A DNA stretch of 64,000 nucleotides from a bacterium (GCA_021842405.1 JAKBZR010000003.1:6496-70495); one strand, 5' to 3'. Shown: positions 2,643-41,279, counted from the stretch's first letter. The notes: a model not told the origin generated them from the letters alone. A program made the numbers and translations.

Positions 2643-2654
2643 GGTTAATTGAGG

Positions 2655-2721
2655 CTATTTAGGCGGGTGTTGCAGGGCGGGATGGGGGGCCAACGATAAT
2701 TACTCCCACAGAACTGAGCTC
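2655..2721. mobile_element. Partial and rearranged MITE-like repeat
   Basis: The sequence contains ATTTAGGCGGGTGTTGCAGGGCGGGATGGGG, an inverted version of the CCGCCCTGTAACACCCGCCTAAAT core. It ends with the terminus CACAGAACTGAGCTC. Confidence 0.45.
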
Positions 2722-2905
2722 ATTCAAACTACCGTTCAGACACAAATTGGCTCGATGAAGGGGTACAGTTAAGTTTAGTGAAAATAGATCGTATGCTTGT
2801 AAGAGGGGCAAACCCGTCGTAATCTCGCACCTTTGATCCGTTCCGGATAGTGAACGTTCGAAAGTATGTCATTTCTTCTTTTAAAGGGAAGGGAGTTAAA
2901 TTGAA

Positions 2906-5344
2906 ATGCTGAAGCGTTACTGTGCGCGAGTGAATTTACCGGTCGGCTTGGCATTAGCTGCATTACTGGCAGCTTTACCCTCTTTAGGGCAAACGGCGAA
3001 CCCGACTGCTGGACACAATCCTGGGGTTCCTCTGCTCAAAAGAGTAAATTTGCCCGATCTGTCCTTACCGGGCGGAATTTTCTCTCCGCCGCGAAGGCTG
3101 CCCGGTCATATTCCGACCAAAGCAATCACCAAATCGGTGATGGTGGGGCAGACCAATCCCAATCAACCGATCAAGATGGCGGTTATCCTTCCGATCCGCA
3201 ACCAGCCGCAGCTTACCGATCTGCTGCATCAACTCTATAACCCCTCTGATCCACACTATGGCCACTACCTGACGGTGGCTCAATTTGAACAGCAGTTCAG
3301 CCCCACTCCCGCTCAGTATGGAGAGGTTGAAGCCTATTTTGCTTCAAGAGGCTTCCGGATCACCGGCACTTCTCCGAACCGCCTGGTGCTGGACGTGGAG
3401 GGCCCGGCTGGCCTGGTGGGATCGGCATTTAGCTTGAGGTTATTCAACTATCGGTTGCCGAGCGGGCGCATCTTTTACGCCACCGATCTCAACCCGCTGG
3501 TGCCCGGCTACATCGCCAACCTGATCGTTGGGATGGCGGGCTTAGATAACGCGGGGAGGCCACATCCAGAATATGTTATCAGACCACGGTTCTCACGGTT
3601 TTTGCCTGGTACCCACCAGATCGGAACCGGACCGGGAGGATATCTGGCGCCGGACGATATCCTTCATACCTATAACCTTTCAAATACGATATCCACCATC
3701 AACGGATCCGGTCAAACATTGGGTCTATTCGAGATGGATGGCTATACGAATAGCGATATCACTACGTTTGAAAACTATTTTCATCTGCCAAACATTCTAC
3801 TTGAGAATGTGCTGGTGGATGGATTTAACGGTCAGCCCTCAGGAAATGGGGGAGAGGTTGAAGTAACGCTGGATATTGATATGATGTTGTCTATCGCCAG
3901 AGGTGCAAAAAAGATCATCGTTTATGAAGGGCCGTCCAACTATAACTATACGGGCTGGATTGACACCTACAACATGATAGCCACCGAAGATCGAGCTAAC
4001 GAGATCAGCACTTCCTGGGGCTTGGCGGAGGACTACCAACCCACTCCATTTATGCTAGCTGAATACGACATCTTTGAGGAGATGGCAGCTCAAGGTCAAT
4101 CCATATTTGCGGCGGCCGGCGATAATGGCGCATTCGATGATTATTTTGATATCAGCGTGGATGATCCCGCCTCTGATCCCTATATGTGCGGTGTGGGTGG
4201 CACCACATTAGCGGTGACCCACCCCGGCGGCGCCTGGGCCGGGGAAACCACCTGGAATGAATTCATATTCGGCGAAGGGGCCGGGGGCGGCGGTGTGAGC
4301 ACCGTATGGGCGGCACCTTCCTACCAGTTGCCGGTGGTGACCGCACCCGGCTGGGCCGGTTTGACGTTGGGTTCGCCTACCTTTCGCAATGTGCCGGATG
4401 TCTCACTCAACTCCGATCCAATCACCGGTTACGATATCTATCTTAACGAGTACGGTGGATGGATAGAAGGTATCGGCGGCACCAGCGCCGCAGCGCCGCT
4501 ATGGGCTGCCTTCACCGCCCTTCTAAATCAAAAATTACTTCAAGAGGGAAAACCGGCGGTGGGCTTTCCCAATCCGTACCTTTATTCCATCGCCCAAAGC
4601 CCCGGGTATGAGGCCGATTTTCATGACATCGCCGATCAGAGCAACAACGGCTACTACCTGGCGGTTAACGGTTATGACGATGCCACCGGCTGGGGTTCCT
4701 TCAATGGTGATAACCTCCTGAATCAATCACCGATTGCGGTGGTGTTGAAGCCCAGTCAGGTATTGGGCGGTGGCCAGGCAACCGGTAAGGTGGTGCTCCA
4801 AACTCCGGCTCCGGCAAGTGGACTCACGGTGGATATCGCTTCCGATGATACGTCGGTGGCGACGGTATCCACGCCCTCGGTGACGGTTCAAGCCGGTTAC
4901 ACCACCAGCAACTCGTTCACTGTAACCACCAATTCAGTTGTGACGACAACCGACGTGGGAATTTCGGCTACTGCAAATAATGAAACCGGTAAGATGGAGC
5001 TACGGGTATGGGCCGCGCTGTCGAGTGCAGCACTGCATTTCAGTCCCAGCCGGGTTGCGCCGTTTGGCATTACATACGGAATTGTAACCTTGCCCGGTCC
5101 GGCTCCGGACGGCGGTGCTGTTATCACCCTTACGGACAGCGACCCCTATTATTCCTACGTACCGGATCACATGGTCATACCGGCCGGTCAAACTACTAAT
5201 TCATTTATAACGCTAACCGGGTGGCCTCCGGTCACCACCTATCCAACCGTCACTGCAACCTACGGCCCTACTTCCGTCAAGGCCACGTTTGCGATAATGG
5301 GTGGAGTTTGGGGTTACCCGATAGTCGGGGGACCGGGCTTTTAG
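2906..5344 (+). CDS. Secreted sedolisin-family (S53) serine peptidase with a pro-kumamolisin-type activation domain and two C-terminal Ig-like repeats
   Basis: A signal peptide (LALAALLAALPSLGQTA) is followed by a propeptide resembling the pro-kumamolisin activation domain (NPSDPHYGHYLTVAQFEQQFSP...). The catalytic-Ser motif GGTSAAAPLWAAF is present. Two tandem repeats of about 95 aa occupy the C-terminus. Confidence 0.85.
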   Translation: MLKRYCARVNLPVGLALAALLAALPSLGQTANPTAGHNPGVPLLKRVNLPDLSLPGGIFSPPRRLPGHIPTKAITKSVMVGQTNPNQPIKMAVILPIRNQPQLTDLLHQLYNPSDPHYGHYLTVAQFEQQFSPTPAQYGEVEAYFASRGFRITGTSPNRLVLDVEGPAGLVGSAFSLRLFNYRLPSGRIFYATDLNPLVPGYIANLIVGMAGLDNAGRPHPEYVIRPRFSRFLPGTHQIGTGPGGYLAPDDILHTYNLSNTISTINGSGQTLGLFEMDGYTNSDITTFENYFHLPNILLENVLVDGFNGQPSGNGGEVEVTLDIDMMLSIARGAKKIIVYEGPSNYNYTGWIDTYNMIATEDRANEISTSWGLAEDYQPTPFMLAEYDIFEEMAAQGQSIFAAAGDNGAFDDYFDISVDDPASDPYMCGVGGTTLAVTHPGGAWAGETTWNEFIFGEGAGGGGVSTVWAAPSYQLPVVTAPGWAGLTLGSPTFRNVPDVSLNSDPITGYDIYLNEYGGWIEGIGGTSAAAPLWAAFTALLNQKLLQEGKPAVGFPNPYLYSIAQSPGYEADFHDIADQSNNGYYLAVNGYDDATGWGSFNGDNLLNQSPIAVVLKPSQVLGGGQATGKVVLQTPAPASGLTVDIASDDTSVATVSTPSVTVQAGYTTSNSFTVTTNSVVTTTDVGISATANNETGKMELRVWAALSSAALHFSPSRVAPFGITYGIVTLPGPAPDGGAVITLTDSDPYYSYVPDHMVIPAGQTTNSFITLTGWPPVTTYPTVTATYGPTSVKATFAIMGGVWGYPIVGGPGF

Positions 5345-5354
5345 TTCATAAAGT

Positions 5355-5397
5355 GGCCGCCGGTGATTGCTTAAATTTATGCAGGAAACCGGCGGCC
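5355..5397 (+). terminator. Stem-loop after the S53 gene: 10-bp perfect stem GGCCGCCGGT/ACCGGCGGCC with a 23-nt loop
   Basis: The inverted repeat is read directly at 5355-5364 and 5388-5397, 11 nt after the stop codon. No clean T-tract follows it. Confidence 0.4.
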
Positions 5398-5559
5398 CTC
5401 TGTTTAATAGAGCGGTGAAGGTTTGGAACGGCAACTAGGGGGCCGAAGAGGAGCCCATTATAAGAACGGTATCGGCCTCAGGACAACTTAAAAAAAGAAC
5501 CGAAAGTCAAGCACGCCAAGCGGACCATCAAAATTATTGTCCGTCGGTCGGTAAAGTGC

Positions 5560-5588
5560 TTGCGTATTTGCCGCGCTTATGTTATAAT
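5560..5588 (+). promoter_or_regulatory. Sigma70-like promoter: TTGCGT, 17-nt spacer, TATAAT
   Basis: The -35 hexamer lies at 5560-5565 and a consensus -10 at 5583-5588. This position leaves a leader of about 100 nt before the giant ORF. Confidence 0.5.
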
Positions 5589-5693
5589 CGGCGGCGGTAG
5601 GTTTTGAGATGGACTGCGCCTTGCGAATGGTCGGCAGCATGGAAGCGCTGACCCTTCGTGATTGACGCGGTCATAAGGGAGGTAGGACTCATC

Positions 5694-8600
5694 TTGAAAA
5701 GATTGAAGCTCGTAAACGTCCTTCTGCTTACGCTGGTTTCGGCAGCCTTTGTTTTTCAAGGCCAGCAAACGGAGGCATCTCCGCGATTCAGCAAATTGAT
5801 CCCGGCAACGGGAAATTTCAATTTGTTCAGAAATCACCAGAAGCCGTTTATCGGCCCCGGCGTACAAATCCTCCCCAGCGATACTCTGCGCGCGCTGCGA
5901 CCCGGAAGGGCGATACAGGCCCCGGTGCAGACGATAAACCTGACGAAATCACCGCTTGCCGACGATAAAGACCCCTTCTGGACCAAAGATGAGCAGTACA
6001 TCTACTTCTCAAGCAATCGCATCAGCGCCTCCAATCCAGCCGCCGGCGCTCTTTACCATATCTACCGCATCAATGCCTCCGATGGCAGCGACCTCACTCA
6101 AATTTCAGGCATGAACACCTATGCCAACGACAATCAAACCAGCCCGGCCGCGAATTTGGGCGGGAATTACCTGGTTTACATTGATCGAGGCCCATCCGGA
6201 GTTGATATTGTATTGCGGAATTTGGTTTCCGATACCACCCAATCCTTGATTAAAAACAACAATCTGGCGCCCGCCTTCACCGATGTCAACCATCCTGAGT
6301 TTATGAGCGCCAGTGATGTGATGTTCAGCGGACAGGTCGGAGTGGGAACCCCATACCATCTCTATTCGGTGAATATTCAAACCGGTCAGGTTCCCCAGCT
6401 TACCACCGGCGCGGCGACCGATAAAGATCCCACCCTCGACCCGACCGGCACGCTCATCGCCTTTGATTCAAACCGATTGGCGAACGACGGCAGCACCGTT
6501 AATCCGGACGGCCATTTCGACATCTGGACGATGACAACCAACCCGGCCGCGCCCAACTTCACAAAATTAACCAATTTTGAGGTCGGCGGCGTTTACGCCA
6601 GCAATATTGATCCGGCCTGGAGCACCAACAAGGTTGATACCACAACCGGGCCGGATGGACAGCCGTTGGTCAACGGCCGCCAACTCATCGCCTTTTCTTC
6701 GACCCGTTACGATTCCACCGGGAACGGTCACGCCGACGCGGTGGGCGCCACCTATCACATCTACTGGATGCCGGCGATGCCGGAAGGGCCGACCAATCAG
6801 GCGCTCAAGCTGAACACCAACGATCCCAATAATAAGTACAACGATCTTCATCCGACATGGCCGCAGTTCATCAATACCTATCGGATTGCTTATCAATCGG
6901 ATCGCATTGATACCGATTTCCGATTTCCGCCGACCAGCCCGCCCGGCAGCCCGCAGGATCTGTTCGCCAGCACCATCGTGGACCTGCATGCGCCAACGCT
7001 GGTCGCCTATAACACGATCACAGACGAAATTGTTCATGTCTCACCGCGGTTGGCCACGCCCGGATCAACGGTCACCTTTACGGTGAAAGTGGCCGATTTT
7101 GAGACTGGCGTCAACGGGGTTTACATTCGGATTAAGAATCCGAACAGTAAGTATCAACAGAATTCCGGTGTTGAGCACAAGATGTTTATGGATACTCCGG
7201 TTTCGCCGGATGGTACCAATACGGTATATTGGCCCGAAGAATTCGATTGCCAACGGATATATGCCAGCCCCGGTCCGCAACAATACACCTATCATGATGT
7301 GCAATATATTGCCAGCATAGATGATTTCTACGCCTTTTCCGGTAGCTCGAGCCCGCCGGACCCGGCCTGGATAAAACTTACTCAAACCGGAACCGATGCA
7401 GACGGCAATGAGATCTGGTCGGGAAGCTGGGTTACGCCGCCACAGGAAACCGATTACATTATTGATGTGATCGCCTACGACAACGCGGTGGACACCTTTA
7501 ATCCCGTTAATAAAGAAAACTGGAAAATTTATGATAATATCTGGGGATTCAGCACTAAGCCGTTCGTTGCGTCGAAGGGGATTCTGTTTGTCAGCGACTA
7601 CTCCAGCGGACAAAAGTTCTTTCAAACAAAGCTTGGACTTAATACTTTGGTTAATGTCGGTTTTACTTTTTGGGGAACTGAAAGTTGGCTAACCGATTTT
7701 GACGTCCGTTTGTTGCCGAATGAATACTTTCCACCCAATAATGGAACGCCGGGACCGATTGACCTTGACCAGAATAGAAGTATCGGCGATACCCTGGGCG
7801 TTGATTCTTACGTTGATTCACTCAATGATGATGGGATTTATGTAGATGGCTATGCAGACCCATCATCTCAACAGTACAATATCTGGCGGATACAGTGCCG
7901 CGGGCCGATTCCCGATTCGGTGCTGGGTCAATACTTGCCCCATACCGAGCAGCAGCCGCCTGATACCATTGACGGTGAAACCACACCTCGAGCCGTTTTG
8001 GTAGCGCCGCGGTGCGTGATCTGGAATGCACCTTATGCTGGTGACCTCTGGACCGGGCCGGGAACGATCACCGATCTATCGACTCAAGCTCAACTGGCCG
8101 CGTTTATTGCGGCCGGCGGCCGTCTCTTCGTAAACGGTGAGGACGTCGGCTGGGCCTTAACTCAGGACGGCACCTTCGCAAACTCATTTTTCACCAATGA
8201 TTTGAAGGCCACATTTATTGCCGACACTTATAACGTTGGTACTTTATCGTATCTTTTTTCTGTCAATGCCCAAATAAAGGCTTTATTTATTGTCGATCCC
8301 CAAAACTTATTAGGGGCGCAGGGTGCTCCGAACCCAATTTCGCATGATCCCTGGCAGGGAACTTATAATGCCATTGCTCATGTCGACAATGTGCATAATT
8401 ATTATAATTATGCCAACAACCCGGCAACTTATGATCCGCCCGATTTGGTGAAACCATACCTGGTTGCAGGTACTGACCCTTTACATATACGCAATCTGGG
8501 AGCATTTAATGAATTATTCCCGGATCATGTAGGGGTAACCAACGGCTCGATCCTGGATTGTAACTATGGAGGGGAATCGACTACAGCCGCTTTATTACAC

Positions 8601-11252
8601 TGGTCAGATCCGACTACCGGCGCCGAGGTGGTCTACTGTCCGGCCGGGTTGGAAGCCTTTAATACCGACGCTTACATGGAGTACCATACCGGATCGGGGC
8701 CGGCGCCGATGGCGTTCCGCAACAAACGGGCCGAGATCATGCACAACATCATCTGCTGGCTGAGAACCGGAACCGTTTTCGGCACCATCCGTAACTCAAA
8801 CGGCGGCACTCCGATCGCAAACGCGCTGGTTCGGGTCTGGAATAGCTACGATAGCAACGGTAAGCCAATTATTGTAGGCACCGGGAGAACCGATGCGAAT
8901 GGAAACTATAGCATTGATGGGTTGCCGCCGGCACCGTATATCATTCAGGCGTTTGAGCCCGGGTTTACCTACCAGCATGCAACTGCCTTTTTGGTACACG
9001 GTGCTACTCGAACTGAGATGAGTATCCTGATGAGTGCCGCCCCGCCGGCCAGTCTGACCGGTAAGGTCACTCAAACCGATGGAACCACCCCAATCGCCGG
9101 GGCGGTGGTGACGGCGACCGATAACTCGGATCCGACCGGTAACACTAAAGTTACAGCGACCACTGGCACCGACGGTACCTACACCATCGCGCAGCTTCCA
9201 TCGCAGACGACTTATACCTTATCGGTAACGGATCCAAGCTACGGGACGGCCATCGCGATCAACTCGGGGAATACTCCGCTCGGCAGCATCTATCCGGTGC
9301 CGAACCCGAACGATCCCAATCAGGCTCAACGGGATACGGTGGTGCAATCGGGGAAGAGCTATACCGGCTTTGACTTCGAATTGAAGGCGATACCGGGCAG
9401 CCTCTCCGGGGTCGTTTCCGATAAGAACACGGGCGCCGGAATTTCAGGGGCCACCGTGACCGCCACCTTCGGCTCGGAGACTCAAACCGCCACGACCAGC
9501 TCGAACGGCAGCTACACCTTTAGCGCGCTCGATCCGGGAACTTGGTCGTTGGTCGCATCGGCCGCCGGCTACACGCCGAATTCACCGGCGGTGACGGCCA
9601 GCGTGGTCAGCAACCAGACGACAACCGGCATCAACATCCAGTTGTTACCATCGGTGCCTGGAAGCCTGTCTGGACTGGTGACCCGCTCCAATGATGGCTC
9701 ACCGCTGAGCGGCGTTACGATTACCATCGTATCCGGATCCGTACAGCAGACGGTGGTGACCGGCCCGGTGCAGACTTCGGGCGGGTACCAGTACAACTAC
9801 AAGTTCAGCAGCGTACCGTCAAACTCCACCTTTACCGTTACCGCAGCCCTCAGTGGATTTACGGCGGTGCCGGCGAGCCAGAGCGCATCGGTGACGCCGA
9901 GTACCGAGACGCAGAACATCAACTTCGTGATGAACCCGCTGCATACCTTCCCAGGACCGCTGACGTTGATCTCGGCGCCTTATGACTATTCCGGCACCGA
10001 TGTGGCGCAGTTGCTGGGCATTCAAAATACCAGCCGGTTTTACTTTATAGGATGGGGGAACAACCAGTACATCTACTATCCAACCGCACCGGTCAATGCA
10101 CTGCACTTGGGCAACGGCTACTTTATGAGCTATCAGTCCAACATTGCCCTGTCGGTACAAGGGGCGGCGGCGCCCACCGATCAGATATTTAGCTTGCCGC
10201 TTAAAGCCGGTTGGAACCTGATGGGCGATCCGTTCCCGTTCTCGATTGACTGGCTGAAGGTACAGGTTCAATACAACGGGCAAACGCTGAGCTTACTCGA
10301 CGCGCAGACGCAAGGGCTGATCGGCGCCGCATTATGGACCTATCAATCCGGCCAGTATCAGTTGGCCTTTACATTAGAGCCATGGCTTGGAGACTGGGTG
10401 CAAGCCTTCCAACCGGTCACTCTGCTGATAGACCCGGTGAATGACCGAATTAACCGCAGCGTTCCGCCGCCGACCACCCGCGCGGAGCTGGTAGCGCCAT
10501 CCACCGGCTGGGATCTCAACATTAGCGTCAGTTCCGGTAACGGCCTGAGCGACGGCGGCGTCTATATCGGCGAGAGCAGAGCCGCCAGCAATGGCTTTGA
10601 TCGATTCAAAGCTCAAAAGCCGCCGGCCATCGGTCAGCAGTATGTATACGCCTACATCAGCCATTCGGATTGGGGAGCGCACTCCGGCGATTACGGTGTG
10701 GATATCCGCTCTGAATCGGTGGCGCAAAAGCAATGGGATATCTCGGTTGAATCCAACACCGGTAATGCGCCGATCACATTACAATGGCCTGACGCAGCGC
10801 TAATTCCGCACGGGCAGGATATAATTTTAACCGATGAGCAGACCGGCACGACGAGGGATTTACGCAGCAGCTCCGGCTACACCTATCAGCCCGGCAGCGG
10901 AGCGGTCACCCGCAAGTTCACAATTAAGGTAGTGCCGGCAACCAGCGGCGATCTTAGGATCGTAAACCTGACCGCGCAGCCGCAGCCCGGGAGAAGCGAA
11001 GGGGTTGCCATCTCCTTCGACCTGACGGCAACCGCCAATGTAAATGTTAAGATACTGAACGGCGAAAGCCAGACGGTGCGGACACTGAACGTCGAGCAGA
11101 GCCGCGCGCCGGGCAACCAGCAGATCGTGTGGGATGGCCGGGATAATCAGGGACGTGCTCTGCCGTCCGGTATGTATATCATCGAGGTTCAAGCGATCGG
11201 CAACAATAGCGCTCAAGTGAAGGCGATTACACCGATCCTCTTGAATCGCTAA
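5694..11252 (+). CDS. Giant secreted protein with an N-terminal TolB-like PD40 beta-propeller, an unassigned central region, four CarboxypepD_reg-like repeats and the shared C-terminal module ending in a FlgD-Ig-like domain
   Basis: The ORF opens at GTG 5658. TTG 5694 is preferred as the start because the RBS AAGGGAGG lies 8 nt upstream and the N-terminus becomes MKRLKLVNVLLLTLVSAAFVFQG, a signal peptide. PD40-type repeats are visible (DKDPFWTKDEQYIYFSSNR, DKDPTLDPTGTLIAFDSNR, NIDPAWS..LIAFSSTR, DLHPTWP..RIAYQSDR). CarboxypepD_reg-like repeats are visible (GTIRNSNGGTPIANALVRV..TDANGNYSI, and others). The terminal motif is VWDGRDNQGRALPSGMYIIEV. Confidence 0.8.
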   Translation: MKRLKLVNVLLLTLVSAAFVFQGQQTEASPRFSKLIPATGNFNLFRNHQKPFIGPGVQILPSDTLRALRPGRAIQAPVQTINLTKSPLADDKDPFWTKDEQYIYFSSNRISASNPAAGALYHIYRINASDGSDLTQISGMNTYANDNQTSPAANLGGNYLVYIDRGPSGVDIVLRNLVSDTTQSLIKNNNLAPAFTDVNHPEFMSASDVMFSGQVGVGTPYHLYSVNIQTGQVPQLTTGAATDKDPTLDPTGTLIAFDSNRLANDGSTVNPDGHFDIWTMTTNPAAPNFTKLTNFEVGGVYASNIDPAWSTNKVDTTTGPDGQPLVNGRQLIAFSSTRYDSTGNGHADAVGATYHIYWMPAMPEGPTNQALKLNTNDPNNKYNDLHPTWPQFINTYRIAYQSDRIDTDFRFPPTSPPGSPQDLFASTIVDLHAPTLVAYNTITDEIVHVSPRLATPGSTVTFTVKVADFETGVNGVYIRIKNPNSKYQQNSGVEHKMFMDTPVSPDGTNTVYWPEEFDCQRIYASPGPQQYTYHDVQYIASIDDFYAFSGSSSPPDPAWIKLTQTGTDADGNEIWSGSWVTPPQETDYIIDVIAYDNAVDTFNPVNKENWKIYDNIWGFSTKPFVASKGILFVSDYSSGQKFFQTKLGLNTLVNVGFTFWGTESWLTDFDVRLLPNEYFPPNNGTPGPIDLDQNRSIGDTLGVDSYVDSLNDDGIYVDGYADPSSQQYNIWRIQCRGPIPDSVLGQYLPHTEQQPPDTIDGETTPRAVLVAPRCVIWNAPYAGDLWTGPGTITDLSTQAQLAAFIAAGGRLFVNGEDVGWALTQDGTFANSFFTNDLKATFIADTYNVGTLSYLFSVNAQIKALFIVDPQNLLGAQGAPNPISHDPWQGTYNAIAHVDNVHNYYNYANNPATYDPPDLVKPYLVAGTDPLHIRNLGAFNELFPDHVGVTNGSILDCNYGGESTTAALLHWSDPTTGAEVVYCPAGLEAFNTDAYMEYHTGSGPAPMAFRNKRAEIMHNIICWLRTGTVFGTIRNSNGGTPIANALVRVWNSYDSNGKPIIVGTGRTDANGNYSIDGLPPAPYIIQAFEPGFTYQHATAFLVHGATRTEMSILMSAAPPASLTGKVTQTDGTTPIAGAVVTATDNSDPTGNTKVTATTGTDGTYTIAQLPSQTTYTLSVTDPSYGTAIAINSGNTPLGSIYPVPNPNDPNQAQRDTVVQSGKSYTGFDFELKAIPGSLSGVVSDKNTGAGISGATVTATFGSETQTATTSSNGSYTFSALDPGTWSLVASAAGYTPNSPAVTASVVSNQTTTGINIQLLPSVPGSLSGLVTRSNDGSPLSGVTITIVSGSVQQTVVTGPVQTSGGYQYNYKFSSVPSNSTFTVTAALSGFTAVPASQSASVTPSTETQNINFVMNPLHTFPGPLTLISAPYDYSGTDVAQLLGIQNTSRFYFIGWGNNQYIYYPTAPVNALHLGNGYFMSYQSNIALSVQGAAAPTDQIFSLPLKAGWNLMGDPFPFSIDWLKVQVQYNGQTLSLLDAQTQGLIGAALWTYQSGQYQLAFTLEPWLGDWVQAFQPVTLLIDPVNDRINRSVPPPTTRAELVAPSTGWDLNISVSSGNGLSDGGVYIGESRAASNGFDRFKAQKPPAIGQQYVYAYISHSDWGAHSGDYGVDIRSESVAQKQWDISVESNTGNAPITLQWPDAALIPHGQDIILTDEQTGTTRDLRSSSGYTYQPGSGAVTRKFTIKVVPATSGDLRIVNLTAQPQPGRSEGVAISFDLTATANVNVKILNGESQTVRTLNVEQSRAPGNQQIVWDGRDNQGRALPSGMYIIEVQAIGNNSAQVKAITPILLNR

Positions 11253-11401
11253 AATAACGATTAAGGAAGCAACTCGACGCTCTTCGGTAGGGGTGTCGTG
11301 ATCGGGAACGAAAATTGTCAGGTATTAGTGACGTTTGCCGGAAGGTGTGTCCGGCCAGCATAAATAATTGCCACACTGTCACTGAGGGAGGACATATCAG
11401 A

Positions 11402-13378: not shown

Positions 13379-13390
13379 CGACCCGATAAC

Positions 13391-13423
13391 GCATCCGGGT
13401 GATTGGTTCATTCACCCGGATGC
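13391..13423 (+). terminator. Stem-loop with a 12-bp perfect stem GCATCCGGGTGA/TCACCCGGATGC and a 9-nt loop
   Basis: The stem-loop lies 13 nt downstream of the stop at 13378. No T-tract follows, so it may act as an attenuator or processing site rather than a full terminator. Confidence 0.45.
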
Positions 13424-13518
13424 GAAGATAATGACGACCAATCGGGTGGACCGATTTCGACGATCAGGAAGAATTGTCTAATTATGAATTCTAGGCGTGG
13501 GTTTGGGGAGGAGTCCGA

Positions 13519-16500: not shown

Positions 16501-16560
16501 ATCGTGCAATCTTCGGATCAAAGTGCAAACGCGGTGGTGCCATTCATTGTCATACGATAG
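13519..16560 (+). CDS. Secreted subtilisin-family (S8) serine peptidase with an I9-like propeptide, fused to the shared C-terminal module
   Basis: The start is GTG 13519 or ATG 13522, after the RBS GGGGAGGAG. The signal peptide is ALCAALMAFLGNVSAAA. The catalytic triad motifs are VCVLDDGVD, SHGTHVAGIA and GTSMAAPHVAGAIALLLS. The C-terminus carries VWNGRDQKGTSVPSGAYIAKV. Confidence 0.88.
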   Translation: MMRLRYNVPLKIALCAALMAFLGNVSAAAVPTGGRAAAPSFVPGQILITVPANTSAAQVQSLAQSAGATVKESLGTVDKDNSWACYLLQLTLASPTSSDTLTAVQNLKSNPLVHFAGPDKLLYPTQVPAGITPNDPLYTYQWDMRLINMPAAWLLQQGSSNVTVCVLDDGVDVTHPEFAGRVLTGYNAADGSTNVMPDTPTSTLPIDETSHGTHVAGIAMATGNNNIGIAGVAMQNVKLLPVKAVDANLLFPEDYLVKAMQFINAQKPTVVNMSLGGPATSDTYDPTDPFAQDIIKAESEGIVVVIAAGNNYLLGNPPFYPANTPGVVCVTSCGPNKEHAVYSEVRPYSTICAPGGDDPTFSNPLTLQITSCWQGGIYGQEQGTSMAAPHVAGAIALLLSVPGVTPDQAISAIESTADTVGQTVPNPTYGYGVLDVYAALLKVSVSTLIISPQGTGGLASSSGTFTTPQPVDTLNPMLKFQVSLVPLSSLSITVDGNPVPSTTIQNSVISGTPGERYIIGFHQVLNPGSHTVVITGVNPTTGQTATDTRTFTVSPHVMPAGRSLVSIPYLQAGAIPQTYFGLTFRLARWESSSAQYAFYNGSGQQDPNASFNPPSNAPFQNVTNQPVAPLGLGYFLDAQNATPILTTGVGEDSQPISIPLQPGWNMIGDPMDFAVSWNALLVTDNGVTMPIQDAASKGYINASLYSFVNGQYTFDTLPAGSLQPWLGNWVFVDPTYAPNGLTLVVPPTPTATTSRAAAVTGPSLGSSGWYVQLQATAGSMADSYNFIGESSRAINGPDQLKVPKPPMLSPFVTVEIQHNDWGSQSGVYAEDIRSRSIVPQAWNVLVNTDKTDVPVTLSWLHIQSVPRNIRLTLKDLATGQTYDMRTRSSVTFNSGNAKQAHEYVIRSVTQPLGAHLIISGLSVAPTRGGGYGINYSISENATVEVTIVSASGNVVATVGSSRAITAGNTTLVWNGRDQKGTSVPSGAYIAKVHAIVQSSDQSANAVVPFIVIR

Positions 16561-16686
16561 TGATCGTTTAATCGCTGATCAGCGAGGCGTATGCCGTTTA
16601 AGGCCGCTAAGTATAAGGGGCCGGCGAGTGAGTCCCATAAGCGGCAGCGGAGAATGCGTTCAACGTTTGAGGGAGGATCAGTTTCG

Positions 16687-19551
16687 ATGAGTTTCAATCG
16701 AATGCGTAGGTTGAGCTGGATTACAGGTACTGCCCTATTCGTGATAGGGTTAACCATAGGGCTGGAGGCTCGTTCTGCTGCCCAATCATCCATATCAAAC
16801 GCCTATATCAGTGTAACAACCGCCACCGCGCCCCCCAATCAATTTACCGCTGTAACAACCGGTGGCGATCCGGTCACAACGGCTGACGACGGACTCGTCC
16901 TTCTTCATTCGGTCATCATATCATTAAGGATTGACGGAGGAGCTCAAGCCGGTGGCAGCGATGTGATATTAGGCGCGCCCAACAGCGTGAGCGTGGTCAA
17001 CAATGAGATGAAGGTGCAGTGGCTCCAACCGATGACCGTTACCACGACAAGCGGCGGCGGGACGGGTACTGGAACCGGCACCGGAACGGGAACCGGCACC
17101 GGTACAGGAACTGGAACTGGAACTGGAACAACTACAACCACGACGACCGGCAACCTAGTGGTCAATCTGGACGTTAAGCTCCTGCATGACACGATCCGGT
17201 GGGGTTTCAGCATTGTAAACGATGATACGCTCCCTCATTCGGTCGGGATTCGATTGGTGGAAGGGTATAACGGCGCCGGCCTGCCGGTGACGATCGGCAC
17301 TACGGTAGGATATGGAGGCGCGCCGGTTCGCACCAACAATCACAGCACCATTCACAATGAGGTTGATTACGTAGGTCCACAAGTTCCTACTTTCTGGTCA
17401 ACCAATGTCCCGGTATCACAAAACGGAGCAAGCGGGCAGTTTGTGATACGGGGATTAACGGCCACCAGCTCGGCCAGCGAATCGGTATGGGCGTCCGACA
17501 ACACGAGGCCCGATGAATTTACGCTGGCGCCGGTGAGCTTATTTGCAGCCGCCCCTTGGGGCGTTACCATTGATCCGACTCAGCCGATTGATACGACGGG
17601 AACCACCGTCCCGCTCGATCCGGCGGTCGCGCTCTACTACAACCCGGTTGAGTTGGTTCCTGGCGATACCCGCACGGTGGTAAACTATCTCGGATTGGGA
17701 GTGGCGTCGGAAAACTTTGACCAGTCTATGGTGGAGGCGGTGGAAGGGCCGGCTTACTTAAACTACAACCAGCAGATTGCCGACCTATATAATGCTCCGC
17801 CGTACCAATATCATGTTGCGCCGTTGACCCTGCCTACTCAACCCAACTTGCCGATTGTGATAACACCTTCCAGCGCTACTCCGCCCATTGATAATCCGAT
17901 AACGATTGAAGTATCGGTCCAAAATCTAACAACAATCGCGTTGGATAATTACTCGGCCACCCTCAACCTACCGCAGAATTCCGGCCTGGAGTTGGCGCCG
18001 GGACAGACGGCAACCCAGGGCACGAACTCCAGCATCTCCATATCGCCGGGCGCGGAGAAATCGTTTTCCTGGCAGTTGCTACCCAATGTCAGTAACCCGC
18101 AGAGCGGTATCATCACCTATTATGTGACGGTCAGCACCGGCATTGCGGGCGGTAAGAGCGTAACCCGGACGATGGAGATACCGGCCATTCCCAGCAGCCA
18201 AAAATTCCCATCCGGCCTGCAACTGATCTCGTTGCCATTCGTTTTCTCAAATCCGCAGCCATCGTTTGCATTTAGCTTGGATCCAGCCAATTTTATGCTG
18301 TTGGATTGGAACGGAACGGCCGGCTCTTATGAGGCGGTCAGCCAAATACAACCAGGGCTGGGATACTGGCTGCAGTTGAATCAAGGCCAGCAGATCAGCA
18401 TAACCGGAGCATCGCCGGTGCCCAATCAAACCGGCACGAGCTCTCAATTCACCCTCACCTTGCCGCAAGGGTGGTCGTTAATTGGTGACCCATACCTGTT
18501 CAATATCCGATGGGGCGATATGCAGGTGCTCAACCCGGCTACATTGCAGATACTGCCGCTTAATGTGGCCAGCGACGGCAACCACAACTGGATCAGCCCG
18601 ACGATCTATTATTTTGATCAAAGCGAGCACGATTACGCTTTTTCGCAAGATCTCGGCTACTTGATGCAACCCTATGCGGGGTTCTGGGTATACAGCTTCT
18701 TGCCGAACTTAAAGCTGATTTTCCCGCCGATAGACGAACCGGGAGCGACCGTCATAACCAGAAGCGCTTTCGCTCAGCAGCCGATCGGTGTGAACAATTG
18801 GCGGTTGCAGATCTCGGCCACCTCAGCCAATACGAACGACACCCATAACTATATCGGCGTTTCAAACCAGGTAACCGGAAATTATAACCCGCTCGACGCC
18901 TTAAAGCCCCCGGCATACGGGAGATCGGTGTCACTCGCACTCGTTCATACCGATTGGGGAGATCACAACGGCGCATACGCGCAAGACCTTCGCTCACCCA
19001 ACGATCCCAACAAAAAGTGGACGATACGGGTTACTTCACCGGAGCCAAATCAAAATGTAACCATTACCTGGCCGAACATAGCGCAAGTGCCCAAACAGTA
19101 TGAGCTCACCCTCACTGATCCGACCGATGGCTCGACTCGATCCATGCGAACCACTTCTTCGATTGTGGTTAATACCGGATCCTCGGGCACCCGAGATCTC
19201 ACCATCACCGCGAAATCGGTGCACCTTGGTGAAGCCTTGTTGATTTCACAATTGGATATACAAACAACGGGCGGTCGTGCGACGGGCGCGCCGCAAACGG
19301 CCAACATTACCTATACCGTAAGCCGGGCGGCATCGTACTCTCGGATTACGATCCGTTCCGCATCCGGGCAAGTGATCCGGCTACTTTCAACCGGTCGCGC
19401 GGTGCAGGCTGGGGTTAATACGGTGGTCTGGGATCTCAGAGACTCAAAGGGAATCTCGGTTCCATCCGGCAGTTATCTCGTTTCGGTGGTAGTGGCTGAC
19501 AGCCAGAGCCAGCAAGCGCGCATGGTTATGCCCTATCTGGTCATACGATAA
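16687..19551 (+). CDS. Secreted protein with an unassigned N-terminal region, a (Gly-Thr)12 linker and the shared C-terminal module
   Basis: The ORF opens at 16591. ATG 16687 lies 9 nt after the RBS GAGGGAGGA and gives MSFNRMRRLSWITGTALFVIGLTIG, a signal or anchor sequence. The C-terminal ~450 aa are collinear with the C-termini of the ORFs ending at 11252 and 16560. Confidence 0.7.
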   Translation: MSFNRMRRLSWITGTALFVIGLTIGLEARSAAQSSISNAYISVTTATAPPNQFTAVTTGGDPVTTADDGLVLLHSVIISLRIDGGAQAGGSDVILGAPNSVSVVNNEMKVQWLQPMTVTTTSGGGTGTGTGTGTGTGTGTGTGTGTGTTTTTTTGNLVVNLDVKLLHDTIRWGFSIVNDDTLPHSVGIRLVEGYNGAGLPVTIGTTVGYGGAPVRTNNHSTIHNEVDYVGPQVPTFWSTNVPVSQNGASGQFVIRGLTATSSASESVWASDNTRPDEFTLAPVSLFAAAPWGVTIDPTQPIDTTGTTVPLDPAVALYYNPVELVPGDTRTVVNYLGLGVASENFDQSMVEAVEGPAYLNYNQQIADLYNAPPYQYHVAPLTLPTQPNLPIVITPSSATPPIDNPITIEVSVQNLTTIALDNYSATLNLPQNSGLELAPGQTATQGTNSSISISPGAEKSFSWQLLPNVSNPQSGIITYYVTVSTGIAGGKSVTRTMEIPAIPSSQKFPSGLQLISLPFVFSNPQPSFAFSLDPANFMLLDWNGTAGSYEAVSQIQPGLGYWLQLNQGQQISITGASPVPNQTGTSSQFTLTLPQGWSLIGDPYLFNIRWGDMQVLNPATLQILPLNVASDGNHNWISPTIYYFDQSEHDYAFSQDLGYLMQPYAGFWVYSFLPNLKLIFPPIDEPGATVITRSAFAQQPIGVNNWRLQISATSANTNDTHNYIGVSNQVTGNYNPLDALKPPAYGRSVSLALVHTDWGDHNGAYAQDLRSPNDPNKKWTIRVTSPEPNQNVTITWPNIAQVPKQYELTLTDPTDGSTRSMRTTSSIVVNTGSSGTRDLTITAKSVHLGEALLISQLDIQTTGGRATGAPQTANITYTVSRAASYSRITIRSASGQVIRLLSTGRAVQAGVNTVVWDLRDSKGISVPSGSYLVSVVVADSQSQQARMVMPYLVIR
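17059..17148 (+). repeat. (Gly-Thr)12 followed by Thr6, encoded by GGN-ACN hexanucleotide repeats including three perfect GGAACT units
   Basis: Codons were read directly from 17059: ggg acg ggt act gga acc ggc acc gga acg gga acc ggc acc ggt aca gga act gga act gga act gga aca, followed by six Thr codons. Confidence 0.9.
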
Positions 19552-19560
19552 AAAATCAAG

Positions 19561-19596
19561 GGGGCTGCCGCCTGTGGATTAACCGTCGGCAGCCCC
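19561..19596 (+). terminator. Stem-loop with a 10-bp perfect stem GGGGCTGCCG/CGGCAGCCCC and a 16-nt loop
   Basis: The stem-loop starts 10 nt after the stop at 19551. No T-tract follows on the + strand, and an A-run precedes it. Confidence 0.4.
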
Positions 19597-19621
19597 CCGA
19601 AACACGGTGAGGAAGCGAACA

Positions 19622-20278
19622 ATGAAGGCAAGAAAAATGAGCAAAAATTCACTATGGGTGTTTGGTATCAGCGCACTATTAATGGTCGCGATGATACCAG
19701 GCGCTTCAGCAAAAATTAACGCCGATCACGCACTTCTATTACAAGAGATGTCAAGGCCATCATTGCTGCTGTTCCCGTTCGATTCGAGCGATCCCAGCAC
19801 CAGCGCCTATGCTGAATTGGCAACCGATGTCGCTTGGTCTCGACTGGTATTGAGCGGCAAGTACCAACCGGTTCGTTTCTATCGCTACCTGCCACCGATC
19901 GCCCGCGCGCTACAGGATCAGCAGCTCGGCGACCAAGATGTTTCAGCGCCATTTTCAGAGGATAATACAAAAGGCATTAGGCTGGCGAAAATCGCTGATT
20001 ACGATTATATTTTGCTGGGGTCAATTGACAGCTACGATTATAACGCGAACACTCACCAAGTTAGCATTACGATGAGCGGTCGGTTGCTCAAAGTTTCGGG
20101 CGGCCGAATCATTAAGAGCGTGACCTTGAGCGGAGGGTATAAAAACCCCAACGGCTCTGAAAACAGCATTGCCGATCACGCCATTCGGACTACCGCCGAC
20201 AAACTGATGACTGGCCTGGTGGGCACCATTAGAAATGCACCGATCCCATCACCGCATGCTAAGAACGCAAAAAAGTAA
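19622..20278 (+). CDS. Small secreted or periplasmic alpha/beta-domain protein, paralogous in pattern to the N-terminal domain of the 11402-13378 product
   Basis: ATG 19622 lies about 6 nt after GGTGAGGAAG. The signal peptide is ISALLMVAMIPGASA, with no lipobox Cys. The pattern LLLFPFDSS..YAELATDVAWSRLVLSGKYQPV...ILLGSIDSY mirrors VIIIDFQNKS..FATDAVAVELANSGRFEVL...IITGEIAFA. Confidence 0.55.
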   Translation: MKARKMSKNSLWVFGISALLMVAMIPGASAKINADHALLLQEMSRPSLLLFPFDSSDPSTSAYAELATDVAWSRLVLSGKYQPVRFYRYLPPIARALQDQQLGDQDVSAPFSEDNTKGIRLAKIADYDYILLGSIDSYDYNANTHQVSITMSGRLLKVSGGRIIKSVTLSGGYKNPNGSENSIADHAIRTTADKLMTGLVGTIRNAPIPSPHAKNAKK

Positions 20279-20474
20279 TTCACGTCGCGGTATCTCTTCA
20301 TAATTGATGATTTAGAAGGCTGTAATAATTGCAGTGATGATGCAGTAAACCGTGTCAAACCGAAAACAAATTAGTTCCGCTGAATTATTAACTTGCGATT
20401 AGCAGCCGACGTGAACAGAATATTGGCCGGGACCTAAAAACAAGGCTCGGCCAATTCAATTATGAGCTCGGTTA

Positions 20475-22460
20475 ATGAAACATTCTCATTCGACCACATT
20501 ATTTTTCTGCTTGTTATTGAGTGCCTTTCCGGCAATCGCTTATGCTTTCAGCACCATTTCTCTATCGGTGGATCGCCCGGTTGTGTTGGCGGACGGAAAA
20601 AGCTCAGCGGTAATCAGCGCAACCGTTCGAGATTCAAGCGGAAACTACGTGCCGGATGGCATTGAGGTTGATTTTCATACCACATTGGGAACGCTGGAAC
20701 CGTTGACTCAAGCGGGCAACACGGGGGCCATTTCCGATGTACAGGCAACCACGATGGGTGGGGTAGCGAGAGTTCGGATCACCAGCAACCAAACCGGAGA
20801 CGCGCAAATCTTAGTTACATCGCCGGGTGCGGGTGCGGCCACCATCCGAATTCGTTTTACCAACAGCACACAAGACACCTATCAAGGTAACGCGTTCGTT
20901 GCGGTGCGGAGCAATCACGAGCTGATGTACAGCGTCACCGATCGGACGATTGAGGCCAGCTCACCCCATAGCGGCGCCTATTTAAGCTTCCGCAACATTC
21001 AAGTTTATGCCGATCAAATTCAGCTCGATTGCAATCAAACCATTGTAAGGGCGAGGGGCGGGGTGCGCTTAAAGGTTGCCGACCATACTATCTCGACCGA
21101 TCGCCTCTATTATAATCTTATGACAAATGACGGTTATGCAGTGGTTGCCAAGGGGCGCGCGCTACGCCCGGTCCAACTTAAGGGTGAAAGCATGAAGCAA
21201 ACGCTCATGCCGGGGGGCATCCCACCGATCTACCTGAAAATGGCCGACCTATCGGATAGCAACCTGGTGATCGCCGCACGCCAAATTCTCTTTTTCCCCA
21301 ATGATAAACTTCAATTTACCTCGCCGCGATTTTATCAGCAGGGCCAAATGCTGGTATCAATGCCCTATTACGTGCTCAGTCTCGGCTCGAACCACCTGTT
21401 CTCCGAACAGTTTGTATCATTGGGCTCTCAGGGGATCGGGGTGGATATTCCCTTTTATTTTCAGCTTTCTCCCAGCAAAACCGGAATTTTCTATCTTCGT
21501 CGAGGAGATCAGCGCCAATCCAGCATCTACACGACCCAAGCCGGTTGGTCGTTGGACATGGTGCAAAAATACTCATCATTGCGCGGCGAAAGGTATCAGG
21601 GGCAGTTCGGAATAAACGGTATAACACGCAGCGACTGGGGGGTTGATTGGTCACACAGTGAGCAGTTCAGTCCAACCTCGGTCGGCTCCATCTATCTCGA
21701 TTTCCCTCAGCATCGTAATCTATTTCTGACCAGCAATTACAACGATCAGATTGGCACCTATCGCCTGGGCGCCAATGTCATCATGAACCAGAGCCTCAAC
21801 GGCATCCCGATTAACAATCAGCAGGGAACCGTCTACTTTGAGGGATTGCCGCGACCGATGGGAAAGACCGGCTATTTTTACACGATCGGCACCTCTTCTA
21901 ATATCAGCCGCACCGCGGAGGCGGGGATTCGACAAGACATTTTTACCCAATCCATATCAATGCGTGCGAACAGCTCCCCATTCAAGCTTGATCACGATAC
22001 CACGCTCACCCACTCGTTCAGCATTGGGGAGGTTATGGCCAGTGGCGCCAGCGGTGGAACCTCCCTGCTCTCTTCGCTCTCGTTGACGCACACCTTCGGG
22101 GCAACTGCCAATTTGCAGCTCAGCTATGATTTCACCCACCAACCGTATACCATTTATGGGGAGGGGCAGCATCGGATCAGCGCTTCTTTCTTTGCATCGG
22201 GAAGAAACAAATGGTATCTCACCCTATACGCCAGCGATATGCTGGATGCGCCCAACAGCAGTCTCCTCAGCGATTTCAGCTACTCGATCGCACCGAAGTG
22301 GCGGGTTGCCTTAATGACGACGATGCAACAATACGGCGCCGCCACCTACAAGGATTTCGACTTAGGTCTGGCTTATGATATCGGGGGCCGCGATGTTATC
22401 TTATCATGGTCAAGCTTGGAGCACCGCATTTCCTTACGGCTTGGCGCTGCCCAATTTTAA
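20475..22460 (+). CDS. Outer-membrane beta-barrel protein with an N-terminal Big_1 (invasin/intimin-type Ig) domain and an OstA/LptD-N-like domain
   Basis: The signal peptide is LLLSAFPAIAYA. The Big_1-like segment reads ISLSVDRPVVLADGKSSAVISATVRDSSGNYVPDG. An OstA-like pattern is present (IQVYADQIQLDCNQTIVRARGGVRLKVADHTISTDRLYYNLMTNDGYA). The remainder is long and rich in alternating residues, ending ...LRLGAAQF. A terminal Phe is typical of OM barrels. Confidence 0.55.
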   Translation: MKHSHSTTLFFCLLLSAFPAIAYAFSTISLSVDRPVVLADGKSSAVISATVRDSSGNYVPDGIEVDFHTTLGTLEPLTQAGNTGAISDVQATTMGGVARVRITSNQTGDAQILVTSPGAGAATIRIRFTNSTQDTYQGNAFVAVRSNHELMYSVTDRTIEASSPHSGAYLSFRNIQVYADQIQLDCNQTIVRARGGVRLKVADHTISTDRLYYNLMTNDGYAVVAKGRALRPVQLKGESMKQTLMPGGIPPIYLKMADLSDSNLVIAARQILFFPNDKLQFTSPRFYQQGQMLVSMPYYVLSLGSNHLFSEQFVSLGSQGIGVDIPFYFQLSPSKTGIFYLRRGDQRQSSIYTTQAGWSLDMVQKYSSLRGERYQGQFGINGITRSDWGVDWSHSEQFSPTSVGSIYLDFPQHRNLFLTSNYNDQIGTYRLGANVIMNQSLNGIPINNQQGTVYFEGLPRPMGKTGYFYTIGTSSNISRTAEAGIRQDIFTQSISMRANSSPFKLDHDTTLTHSFSIGEVMASGASGGTSLLSSLSLTHTFGATANLQLSYDFTHQPYTIYGEGQHRISASFFASGRNKWYLTLYASDMLDAPNSSLLSDFSYSIAPKWRVALMTTMQQYGAATYKDFDLGLAYDIGGRDVILSWSSLEHRISLRLGAAQF

Positions 22461-23504: not shown

Positions 23505-23516
23505 GCAAGGCAGTGC

Positions 23517-40878: not shown

Positions 40879-41279
40879 AATTCGAGGTACTCCCTTCAAA
40901 CTTTTCCTTGAGTTTAGAGTATAACATAAACAGCAGACTTCGCCGTTATCAATCGAATGCGGTTGCTGTGACCGAGCCACCTGTCTTGATTGTTTTGCCC
41001 CGGATGAGGCAGTCTGCTGCTGGTGCTGAATAAAAGAATGTTCAGGTGTTGAGAAGAGGTTGGCGCGCTGCAGATAGCGATCATTAATTTAATAGAATGC
41101 CGTTATTGTTCATTACCGAACCGGGGGCTCTAACCCTATTACTTTTAGTCTTGGGAAAAAAGATCGGTAGTCAAGTATACCTAACTCACTTACCTTGACG
41201 CAATTTGAAGTGATTTGTTCGATTCGGCAGCCCAGCGTTTTAATATATTCTTACCACATCTTTAAGAGGACACCGCAAT

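Follow-up and report, generated by a model that had tools for sequence, protein, structure and literature searches.

Six consecutive + strand genes in a 64-kb stretch of bacterial DNA (the window, which throughout means the whole stretch at its full length) form a previously undescribed envelope gene cluster that is conserved across the phylum Armatimonadota. They encode, in this order, a giant secreted protein, a protein of 658 amino acids (aa) with one predicted transmembrane helix (p658), an S8 subtilase, a 954-aa protein (p954), a small protein of 218 aa (p218) and a predicted LptD-fold outer-membrane barrel. The giant, the subtilase and p954 share a C-terminal module, and p658 and p218 are predicted to share an LpoB-type fold. 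Because the order of the six genes holds across deep divergence, they are a functional unit and not a chance neighborhood; full-text literature searches found no description of the cluster. We propose, with a probability of roughly 0.55, that the barrel and the LpoB-fold proteins make up an outer-membrane platform that docks or exports the module proteins, giving a protease-containing surface complex.

The window comes from the 94-kb contig DAHYRK010000107.1 of metagenome-assembled genome (MAG) GCA_027392455.1. We place the organism in the Armatimonadota because the source-named homologues of window proteins all carry labels from this phylum (Chthonomonadales, Armatimonadetes or Fimbriimonas). 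An initial annotation of the window had described seven co-directional + strand genes, all confirmed here as open reading frames (ORFs), which lie between rpsA-coaE (451-2642) and a pair formed by a Gfo/Idh/MocA oxidoreductase gene (GFO) and murB (22473-24509). The first of the seven, for an S53 sedolisin, is treated below; the other six form the conserved cluster:

5658..11252 (+), giant secreted protein, 1864 aa: predicted signal peptide, TolB-like beta-propeller, ~600-aa conserved region, 4-5 CarboxypepD_reg domains, module
11402..13378 (+), p658, 658 aa: predicted signal peptide, LpoB/CsgG/TolB_N-fold domain, small beta domain, very hydrophobic transmembrane helix, Fn3-like domains and Gly/Thr linker, highly conserved C-terminal motif, Pro-rich tail
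13522..16560 (+), S8 subtilase, 1012 aa: predicted signal peptide, fervidolysin-like prodomain, catalytic domain, immunoglobulin (Ig)-like spacer, module
16687..19551 (+), p954: predicted signal peptide, beta-supersandwich N-terminal domain interrupted by a Gly/Thr tract, CARDB/NEW3-like Ig domain, module
19622..20278 (+), p218: small secreted protein of predicted LpoB fold, paralogue of the p658 N-terminal domain
20475..22460 (+), LptD-like outer-membrane protein, 661 aa: predicted signal peptide, Big_1 Ig domain (aa 26-129), beta-jellyroll (aa ~142-300), barrel (aa ~314-658), C-terminal aromatic residue

Publicly available gene calls for this contig give giant-to-barrel products of 1864, 658, 1012, 954, 218 and 661 aa. 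Two starts are ambiguous: the giant, annotated as 1852 aa from 5694, may begin there or at a GTG at 5658 (1864 aa), and for the subtilase both the annotated start at 13519 and one at 13522 are possible. The gaps across the seven genes measure 313, 149, 143, 126, 70 and 196 nucleotides (nt). Each of the seven N termini, all annotated as signal peptides, consists of 1-6 Lys/Arg residues and a 12-aa hydrophobic core (mean Kyte-Doolittle value 2.3-2.7), a pattern that, as read from sequence, is like that of Sec signal peptides.

We scanned one genome per GTDB species with p658 as the anchor, which gave 17 armatimonadotal loci, and compared the window proteins with the ORFs of these loci by BLAST; a metagenome scan anchored on the barrel gave 28 loci, and several contigs were looked up besides. 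Across this material, the order giant-p658-S8-p954-p218-barrel recurs at 26%–50% protein identity. In the p658-bearing species genomes, the first four genes keep their order at 31%–50% identity: the giant lies directly 5' of p658 in all 17 loci (full-length identity 39%–44%), the S8 gene directly 3' of it in 14/14 loci with sequence there, and p954 comes next after S8 in 12/12. Upstream, coaE is found, usually with rpsA, in 12 of 14 loci whose sequence extends far enough. Three loci (L007, L015 and L023) pass from p954 directly to p218 and the barrel, and eight other species (L008-L011 and L016-L019) have a very large extra ORF 3' of p954. A contig from the same species as L017 (L031, 99.5% identity) shows this ORF (L031:1161-9071) to encode a fourth module-bearing protein of 2636 aa, which is followed by a p218 homologue and then the barrel; no domain beyond the module was recognizable in it.

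More distant relatives carry either the complete set of six genes (contigs L029 and L030) or shortened versions of it. A reduced set, p658-S8-p954like-p218like-barrel, was found in L025, and a Fimbriimonas MAG (L028) has a minimal one, rpsA-p658like-one module protein-barrel; the giant is not present in either. Two further contigs, traced from two module proteins of other architecture found in the exhaustive profile search described below, have the orders p658like-C11 peptidase-C39_2 peptidase with a full module-p954like-p218like-barrel-uvrB (L062) and giant-p658like-C11-S8 with module-p954like-p218like-barrel-uvrB (L064). The C11 clostripain-type peptidase gene thus sits between p658 and the module-bearing peptidase in both (L062:8629-9894 and L064:8678-9871); the window has a C11 peptidase gene as well, 17 kb downstream and on the other strand (39553-40980, −). 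Every large gene between p658 and p218, including that for the 2636-aa protein of some species, bears the module. The constant parts of the cluster are the LptD-fold barrel, p218, p658 (present in every variant, the minimal Fimbriimonas one included) and one to four large Sec-exported proteins with the module, of which subdomain A is always there, in most cases with subdomain B and a FlgD-type Ig domain after it.

At the 3' end, the ORF immediately 5' of the barrel is a p218 homologue in all 20 metagenome loci with upstream sequence, and the same holds for L007, L015, L023, L025, L027, L029-L031, L062 and L064. The gene preceding p218 in the metagenome loci encodes a module protein in 16 of 18 cases and p658 in the other 2. 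What lies 3' of the barrel varies: GFO-murB in the window, where both follow with 12-nt gaps, and elsewhere uvrB, a tocopherol cyclase gene, a carbonic anhydrase gene on the opposite strand or a GH116 gene; murB is near the barrel in only one metagenome locus, 7.5 kb away. Because the downstream neighbors vary while the link with p218 and the module is kept, the barrel is a member of this cluster and not of an envelope operon with murB. The initial annotation had offered such an operon, with the barrel as an LptD homologue, as its alternative; the LptD-family fold has held up, and the linkage to GFO and murB is not conserved elsewhere.

We assign next to no probability to the view that chance has brought unrelated secreted proteins together in this locus, or that it is an island acquired by recent transfer. 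The G+C content of the window is unremarkable, and the intergenic hairpins (listed below) together with gaps of 70-313 nt could mean separate transcription units, but the same order in more than 40 independent loci at 26%–50% protein identity refutes this view for the six genes; it holds for the S53 gene alone. The genomes of the cultured member Chthonomonas calidirosea are operon-poor, with usually operonic genes scattered (PMC4959169), and the conserved order stands out for that reason. The functional unit of the initial annotation is thereby upheld for the giant through the barrel, and its proposed synteny comparison excludes the sedolisin, of which no homologue was found in the 17 related species loci.

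The module itself, correctly annotated as shared by three of the large proteins, spans ~430-450 aa, with 31%–34% pairwise identity in a three-way alignment, and is far larger than the ~80-residue FlgD_ig domain with which it ends. Its parts, in order, are subdomain A (~190 aa; motifs LISxPY, GxGYWL, GWNxIGDP and PWxGxWV), subdomain B (~150 aa; motifs NYIGxS, KPP, DWG and DIRS) and the FlgD-type Ig domain. The three copies are:

9918..11249 (+), module copy 1, in the giant: three-way alignment, full-length match to the module hidden Markov model (HMM)
15157..16557 (+), module copy 2, in the S8 protease: alignment and module HMM
18172..19548 (+), module copy 3, in p954: alignment and module HMM

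In the AlphaFold2 (AF2) model of p954, the module segment (about residues 510-690 and 700-950) has predicted local distance difference test scores (pLDDT) mostly around 90. An HMM built from the three copies matched the 64-kb window exactly three times, at these copies and nowhere else, and in what was read of each Chthonomonadales locus it likewise matched exactly three times. When 1.84 billion representative proteins were searched exhaustively with a profile, 1988 matches fell below 1e-30. Among the best 150 of these, nearly all have a complete module at the extreme C terminus, and their lengths fall into classes of about 1700-2050, 1000-1090 and 850-990 aa, which correspond to the three families. 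Subdomains A and B had no sequence relatives in Pfam or the PDB. The S8 and p954-like proteins of L025 have only subdomain A in common, and the same restriction was seen in L057 and L061; subdomain A is the universally shared piece of the module.

A C-terminal Ig-like domain shared by several large secreted proteins and a protease recalls the cargo of the type IX secretion system (T9SS), to whose C-terminal domains FlgD_ig is related. One could therefore suppose a divergent T9SS-like pathway, with FlgD_ig as the sorting domain and the subtilase in the role of the PorU sortase. FlgD_ig is matched strongly and does stand at the extreme C terminus of all cargo-like proteins, and there are weak C-terminal matches to the C-terminal regions of PorU/PorZ (1e-4) and to PorU 6za2 (0.025). 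Yet Por_Secre_tail matched only 1/13 and 1/12 orthologues (0.003-0.01), no PorV-, SprA- or PorK/L/M/N-like genes were found in the cluster or the window, and the most distant variants lack FlgD_ig and keep subdomain A alone. Unlike T9SS cargo, the proteins carry a ~450-aa module with two extra subdomains, whose universal part is not the Ig tail. As candidate T9SS cargo they were rejected: a Por_Secre_tail/TIGR04183-type C-terminal domain was hardly ever matched, and the core partner genes are missing from the window. T9SS is not known from outside the Bacteroidota/FCB group, and we disfavor this pathway as very improbable.

The barrel protein had been annotated as a combination of Big_1 and an OstA-like barrel, and this is borne out. 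Pfam recognized Big_1 at 8e-10 and OstA_2 weakly (6e-3), and LptD_N was found in 4 of 12 family members at 5e-3, in keeping with the N-terminal OstA/LptD_N beta-jellyroll that typifies LptD. The family profile matched intimin/invasin Ig domains (1e-13), Neisseria LptD 7omm over the jellyroll and the start of the barrel (9e-6) and LptA (1e-3). In the AF2 model (pLDDT 71.5), an Ig domain is followed by a beta-sandwich (aa 142-300) and then by a barrel of ~22-24 strands at pLDDT 70-85; in Foldseek, the top 13 matches of the model were all LptD (1e-15 to 3e-11), nine orders of magnitude ahead of the next fold class, the chaperone-usher barrels (1e-6). Foldseek template-modeling scores against LptD are low (~0.3), so that the match is one of architecture and not of superimposable structure. 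The Pfam LptD barrel model PF04453 gave no match at E≤1 in any of the 12 family members. A C-terminal Phe/Tyr is conserved in the family alignment. One homologue is named "invasin domain 3-containing protein" by NCBI. From these models and profiles, the barrel is predicted to be an LptD-fold outer-membrane protein. As in LptD-LptE of E. coli, Shigella and Neisseria (4Q35, 5IV9, 7OMM), a periplasmic beta-jellyroll would precede a very large C-terminal beta-barrel, and a small partner protein is encoded next to it. Unlike LptD, the protein has no PF04453 match, ~22-24 predicted strands instead of 26 and an N-terminal Big_1 Ig domain, although some LptDs have an extra N-terminal domain before the jellyroll; unlike lptD loci, its context is one of large secreted proteins and a protease and not of lpt or sur/pdx genes.

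The two proteins annotated as having alpha/beta domains can now be described more closely, as homologues of each other with an LpoB/CsgG/TolB_N-type fold. The p658 family (51 detectable homologues, the source-named ones all from Armatimonadota: Chthonomonadales, Armatimonadetes and Fimbriimonas) matched Pfam LpoB in 12/18 members (best 2e-6), CsgG in 6/18 (2e-5) and TolB_N in 5/18, with individual scores mostly below gathering cut-offs, and its profile matched LpoB structures at 9e-4. Aligned by hhalign, p218 and the p658 family gave a probability of 95% and E = 3.9e-8, which shows that p218 and the p658 N-terminal domain are paralogous. The best and only PDB sequence match of p218, the PelC structure 5T11, is non-significant (E = 0.9). 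Neither protein has a lipobox; their signal peptides end in AxA-type sites without Cys. In PelC-PelB and CsgG, LpoB/TolB_N-fold rings stand at outer-membrane export sites, and p218 and the p658 N-domain would, by profile, belong to the same fold group and are encoded next to an outer-membrane barrel. Unlike the lipoproteins PelC, CsgG and LpoB, they lack a lipobox, and p658 is extended by a transmembrane helix and a large C-terminal part; what is exported here is presumed to be protein and not polysaccharide or curli, and the likeness is one of sequence profiles.

The bitopic nature annotated for p658 agrees with a hydropathy scan, in which it has the sole internal transmembrane-like segment among the seven proteins, starting near aa 295:

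12284..12367 (+), internal transmembrane helix of p658, with the basic stretch KPAQRKG before it

With an inner-membrane stop-transfer anchor, the extracytoplasmic-looking C-terminal half would lie in the cytoplasm and the positive-inside rule would be violated. Speculatively, a helix that crosses the outer membrane would fit the topology. Some p218 orthologues (L007:18080-18733 and L023:18110-18802) end in a basic patch and then a Gly-rich hydrophobic tail (…HHRSSNWLWGVVAIGLGLGIGLSSG), which resembles the basic patch and transmembrane helix that follow the homologous domain of p658.

Taken by itself, the barrel could be a housekeeping lipopolysaccharide (LPS) translocon, a divergent LptD with p218 as a non-orthologous substitute for LptE. 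The giant, the subtilase and p954 would then be a co-expressed, abundant outer-membrane or S-layer-like coat, located with it next to rpsA since all are envelope housekeeping genes, and the barrel would export LPS and not proteins. This is the main rival to our proposal, and we consider it a serious though less probable account. It has the barrel fold on its side, as well as the lipid A/LPS genes of Armatimonadetes (PMC5007114; PMC4072686) and the constant position of the cluster after rpsA-coaE. The lack of a PF04453 match would fit a divergent LptD that standard searches miss, and clear LptD/E homologues are reported to be undetectable in diderm Firmicutes (PMC5007114). A surface coat would accord with the Gly/Thr linkers and with the partial match between the giant and an anammox S-layer glycoprotein model (74 bits). 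The rival offers no explanation, however, for the constant flanking of the barrel by module proteins and the p658/p218 paralogues, which holds even in the minimal three-gene set. No lptA, lptC, lptB, lptF or lptG gene was found in the 64-kb window or in the examined flanks (up to 10 kb), and the strand number of the predicted barrel differs from the 26 of LptD. As an LptE homologue, p218 was rejected: its profile is of LpoB type, it matched no LptE structure at E≤10, and it has no Cys lipobox and hence is not a lipoprotein. It may still act in a role analogous to that of LptE.

Proteolysis appears to be an integral activity of the system, as the initial annotation had guessed, because a module-bearing peptidase that is predicted to be active occurs in all but the minimal Fimbriimonas variant and the S8 triad is invariant. 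The subtilase gave a full-length match to Peptidase_S8 (PF00082, 1.9e-49) in addition to its FlgD_ig tail, which agrees with its annotation, and the catalytic Asp, His and Ser and the oxyanion Asn are conserved in 16/16 orthologues. The catalytic type can evidently change, as a C39_2 peptidase with a full module occupies the S8 position in L062. Subtilases are likewise co-encoded as integral members of envelope complexes in Treponema denticola dentilisin (PrtP-PrcA-PrcB) and as the mycosin of type VII secretion. NCBIfam matches of the catalytic domain to mycosin (3e-40) and PrtP (9e-35) are both far below the family cut-offs; unlike in those systems, the similarity is to the generic S8 domain only, the accessory proteins are unrelated, and there is neither a lipoprotein anchor nor any ESX or dentilisin partner gene.

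For p954, FlgD_ig was the sole domain recognized in scans of the window proteins. Its AF2 model (pLDDT 79; predicted template-modeling score 0.73) has an N-terminal beta-supersandwich that, in Foldseek, resembles the N-domains of GH94 phosphorylase and cyclic glucan synthase, a galactose-mutarotase-like protein and the periplasmic domain of YidC, and Ig-like domains that resemble C-terminal parts of streptococcal cell-envelope proteases. NPCBM_assoc matched 5/13 orthologues. These orthologues came from the fetched loci and the exhaustive profile search; a word-indexed homologue search with p954 returned nothing, probably because of its (GT)n low-complexity tract. A (GT)n-like run spans aa 123-155 of p954 (window 17053-17151), and a Gly/Thr tract is also present at aa 455-492 of p658 (12764-12877), GGGGTGTGIGTG...; the p954 orthologue of L015 has a tract similar to that of p954. 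The tracts are probably flexible linkers and possibly O-glycosylated.

A surface protease beside a putative carbohydrate-binding p954 could also be pictured as a device for protein or glycoprotein foraging, in which S8 (or C39) and p954 degrade polymers and the barrel serves as the uptake channel, like a Sus system without TonB. The presence of a protease of changeable type in all but the minimal variant would suit this, as would the p954 supersandwich domain, of a type found in glycan-active enzymes, the description of C. calidirosea as a carbohydrate scavenger (PMC4959169) and the further peptidases, S53 and M1, in the variable slot described below. We nevertheless consider it unlikely. The jellyroll of the barrel is an LptD-type, that is, export-type lipid-transfer domain, and the protein carries neither a TonB-dependent plug nor a porin signature; the barrel has no conserved neighbors that are substrate-binding proteins, ABC transporters or regulators; and the position after rpsA-coaE and the conservation throughout the phylum suggest a housekeeping and not a nutrient-specific role.

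The giant had been annotated as a PD40/CarboxypepD_reg protein. Its CarboxypepD_reg domains are strong (four matches, 1e-38) and PD40 is weak only; NCBIfam TolB (1e-10) and FlgD_ig also matched, and the propeller aligned by profile with TolB structures in the PDB at 1.5e-4 over ~120 residues. The strongly conserved central ~600 aa have no sequence relatives in Pfam or the PDB. TolB proper is a protein of ~430 aa with a TolB_N domain and a six-bladed propeller, encoded in the tol-pal operon. The giant was rejected as a TolB orthologue (41 bits against a cut-off of 343; 1864 aa; no tol/pal neighbors), and equally as a Kustd1514-type anammox S-layer glycoprotein (NF052345), for which it scored 74 bits against a cut-off of 1400, through the CarboxypepD_reg repeats only.

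We favor the proposal of an outer-membrane platform and envisage it as follows. All parts would cross the inner membrane via Sec. The barrel would insert in the outer membrane and pair with p218, as LptD does with LptE or PelB with PelC, and p658 would join this platform through its p218-homologous domain. Subdomain A, the sole piece common to the most distant variants, would dock the large proteins to the platform, which would export them, retain them at the cell surface, or both, as a protease-containing complex or coat. A more specific version, which we hold only tentatively, is an export or anchoring system peculiar to Armatimonadota, in which the LptD-fold barrel and its LpoB-fold partners would translocate or display large non-lipidated proteins by means of the ~190-aa subdomain A; one LpoB-fold partner may then cross the outer membrane by an alpha-helix.

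Several points weigh against such a platform. We infer the physical association of the cluster proteins, their surface location and export through the barrel, and likewise any choice between foraging and S-layer functions. LptD barrels move lipids (LPS or the lipid anchors of lipoproteins) and not folded proteins of 100-200 kDa, and no lipobox was found in any module protein. Positive charges flank the p658 helix on the side of its domain of supposed periplasmic location. Nor does the module occur in this cluster alone: module-like proteins P0208 and P0193 are encoded in unrelated contexts away from any barrel, so that subdomain B with FlgD_ig extends beyond the cluster. The intergenic hairpins may mean that the genes are not one transcript. 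Finally, because Armatimonadetes carry LPS synthesis genes (PMC5007114; PMC4072686), the barrel may simply be the LptD that they need. A role in protein display is nonetheless conceivable for an LptD-fold barrel, because the LptD homologue BB0838 of Borrelia burgdorferi facilitates the flipping of surface lipoproteins (bioRxiv 10.1101/2022.12.21.521298). This LptD-family barrel, which serves surface-protein display besides or instead of LPS transport, would be the closest functional precedent for the role proposed here. Unlike the module proteins, the Borrelia cargo consists of lipoproteins moved by their lipid anchor, and Borrelia, unlike Armatimonadetes, has no LPS.

The first gene of the locus as annotated does encode a sedolisin, which adjoins the cluster as a non-conserved member:

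2906..5344 (+), S53 sedolisin, 812 aa: Pro-kuma_activ (1e-26) and Peptidase_S8 (3e-7)

The slot between coaE and the giant (window 2643-5657) holds S53 here and is empty, with coaE abutting the giant, in most loci; in L007 (1392-3923) it holds a BNR/sortilin-type propeller and in L013 (1462-3396) an M1 peptidase. Because no S53 homologue is present in the 17 loci and the slot content is variable, S53 does not belong to the system, contrary to its annotated membership, and is a guest specific to this lineage at the 5' edge of the cluster.

Three stem-loops had been put forward as possible partitions of the locus, at 5355, 13391 and 19561, and all three exist:

5355..5397 (+), hairpin after the S53 stop codon: −32.6 kcal/mol over an 81-nt segment, z −4.9, no U tail
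13390..13424 (+), hairpin with a 13-bp stem after the p658 stop codon: z −5.7, no U tail
19560..19598 (+), hairpin after the p954 stop codon: z −2.9, no U tail

Because they lack U tails and comparable hairpins follow different cluster genes in other species, they cannot be used to partition the locus. A scan of the window for consensus promoters and terminators yielded 16 terminator-like sites where 20.9 were expected, hence no enrichment, and gave no operon boundaries, and Rfam and tRNA scans found no RNA family or tRNA in the window.

Elsewhere in the window, three proteins of 770, 792 and 1207 aa (25170-27482, 30972-33350 and 45684-49307) have weak matches to glycoside hydrolases of GH42, GH14 or GH5 type, consistent with the carbohydrate-scavenging lifestyle described for Chthonomonas. 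On the − strand, at 27531-29812, the gene for a ParA/MinD-like ATPase and the end of a gene with Schlafen AlbA_2 and HATPase_c_4 domains overlap, a pairing that occurs in some defense or mobile-element contexts. Two further − strand genes encode members of uncharacterized families, a DUF6785/DUF6784 membrane protein with a strong match (43708-45621; 2e-108) and a prepilin-type N-methylation/DUF1559 protein (33689-34498).

Armatimonadota are a poorly studied diderm phylum in which envelope biogenesis and surface architecture are essentially uncharacterized, and few gene orders besides that of the cluster are conserved across it. The cluster defines a new ~450-aa C-terminal module, and the p954-type supersandwich proteins make up a family found in hundreds of sequence clusters without annotation. 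The cluster would represent either the missing, highly divergent LPS translocon, set in a surface-coat operon, or an LptD-derived protein-display machine. Either outcome bears on how outer-membrane translocons have diversified outside Proteobacteria, a question that the Borrelia LptD homologue and the reported lack of clear LptD/E in diderm Firmicutes have posed before. We regard the barrel as an LptD-family translocon in a new, conserved partnership, with some chance, well short of even, that the system exports or displays proteins in a novel way; if true, it would be a new type of secretion system derived from the LPS translocon.

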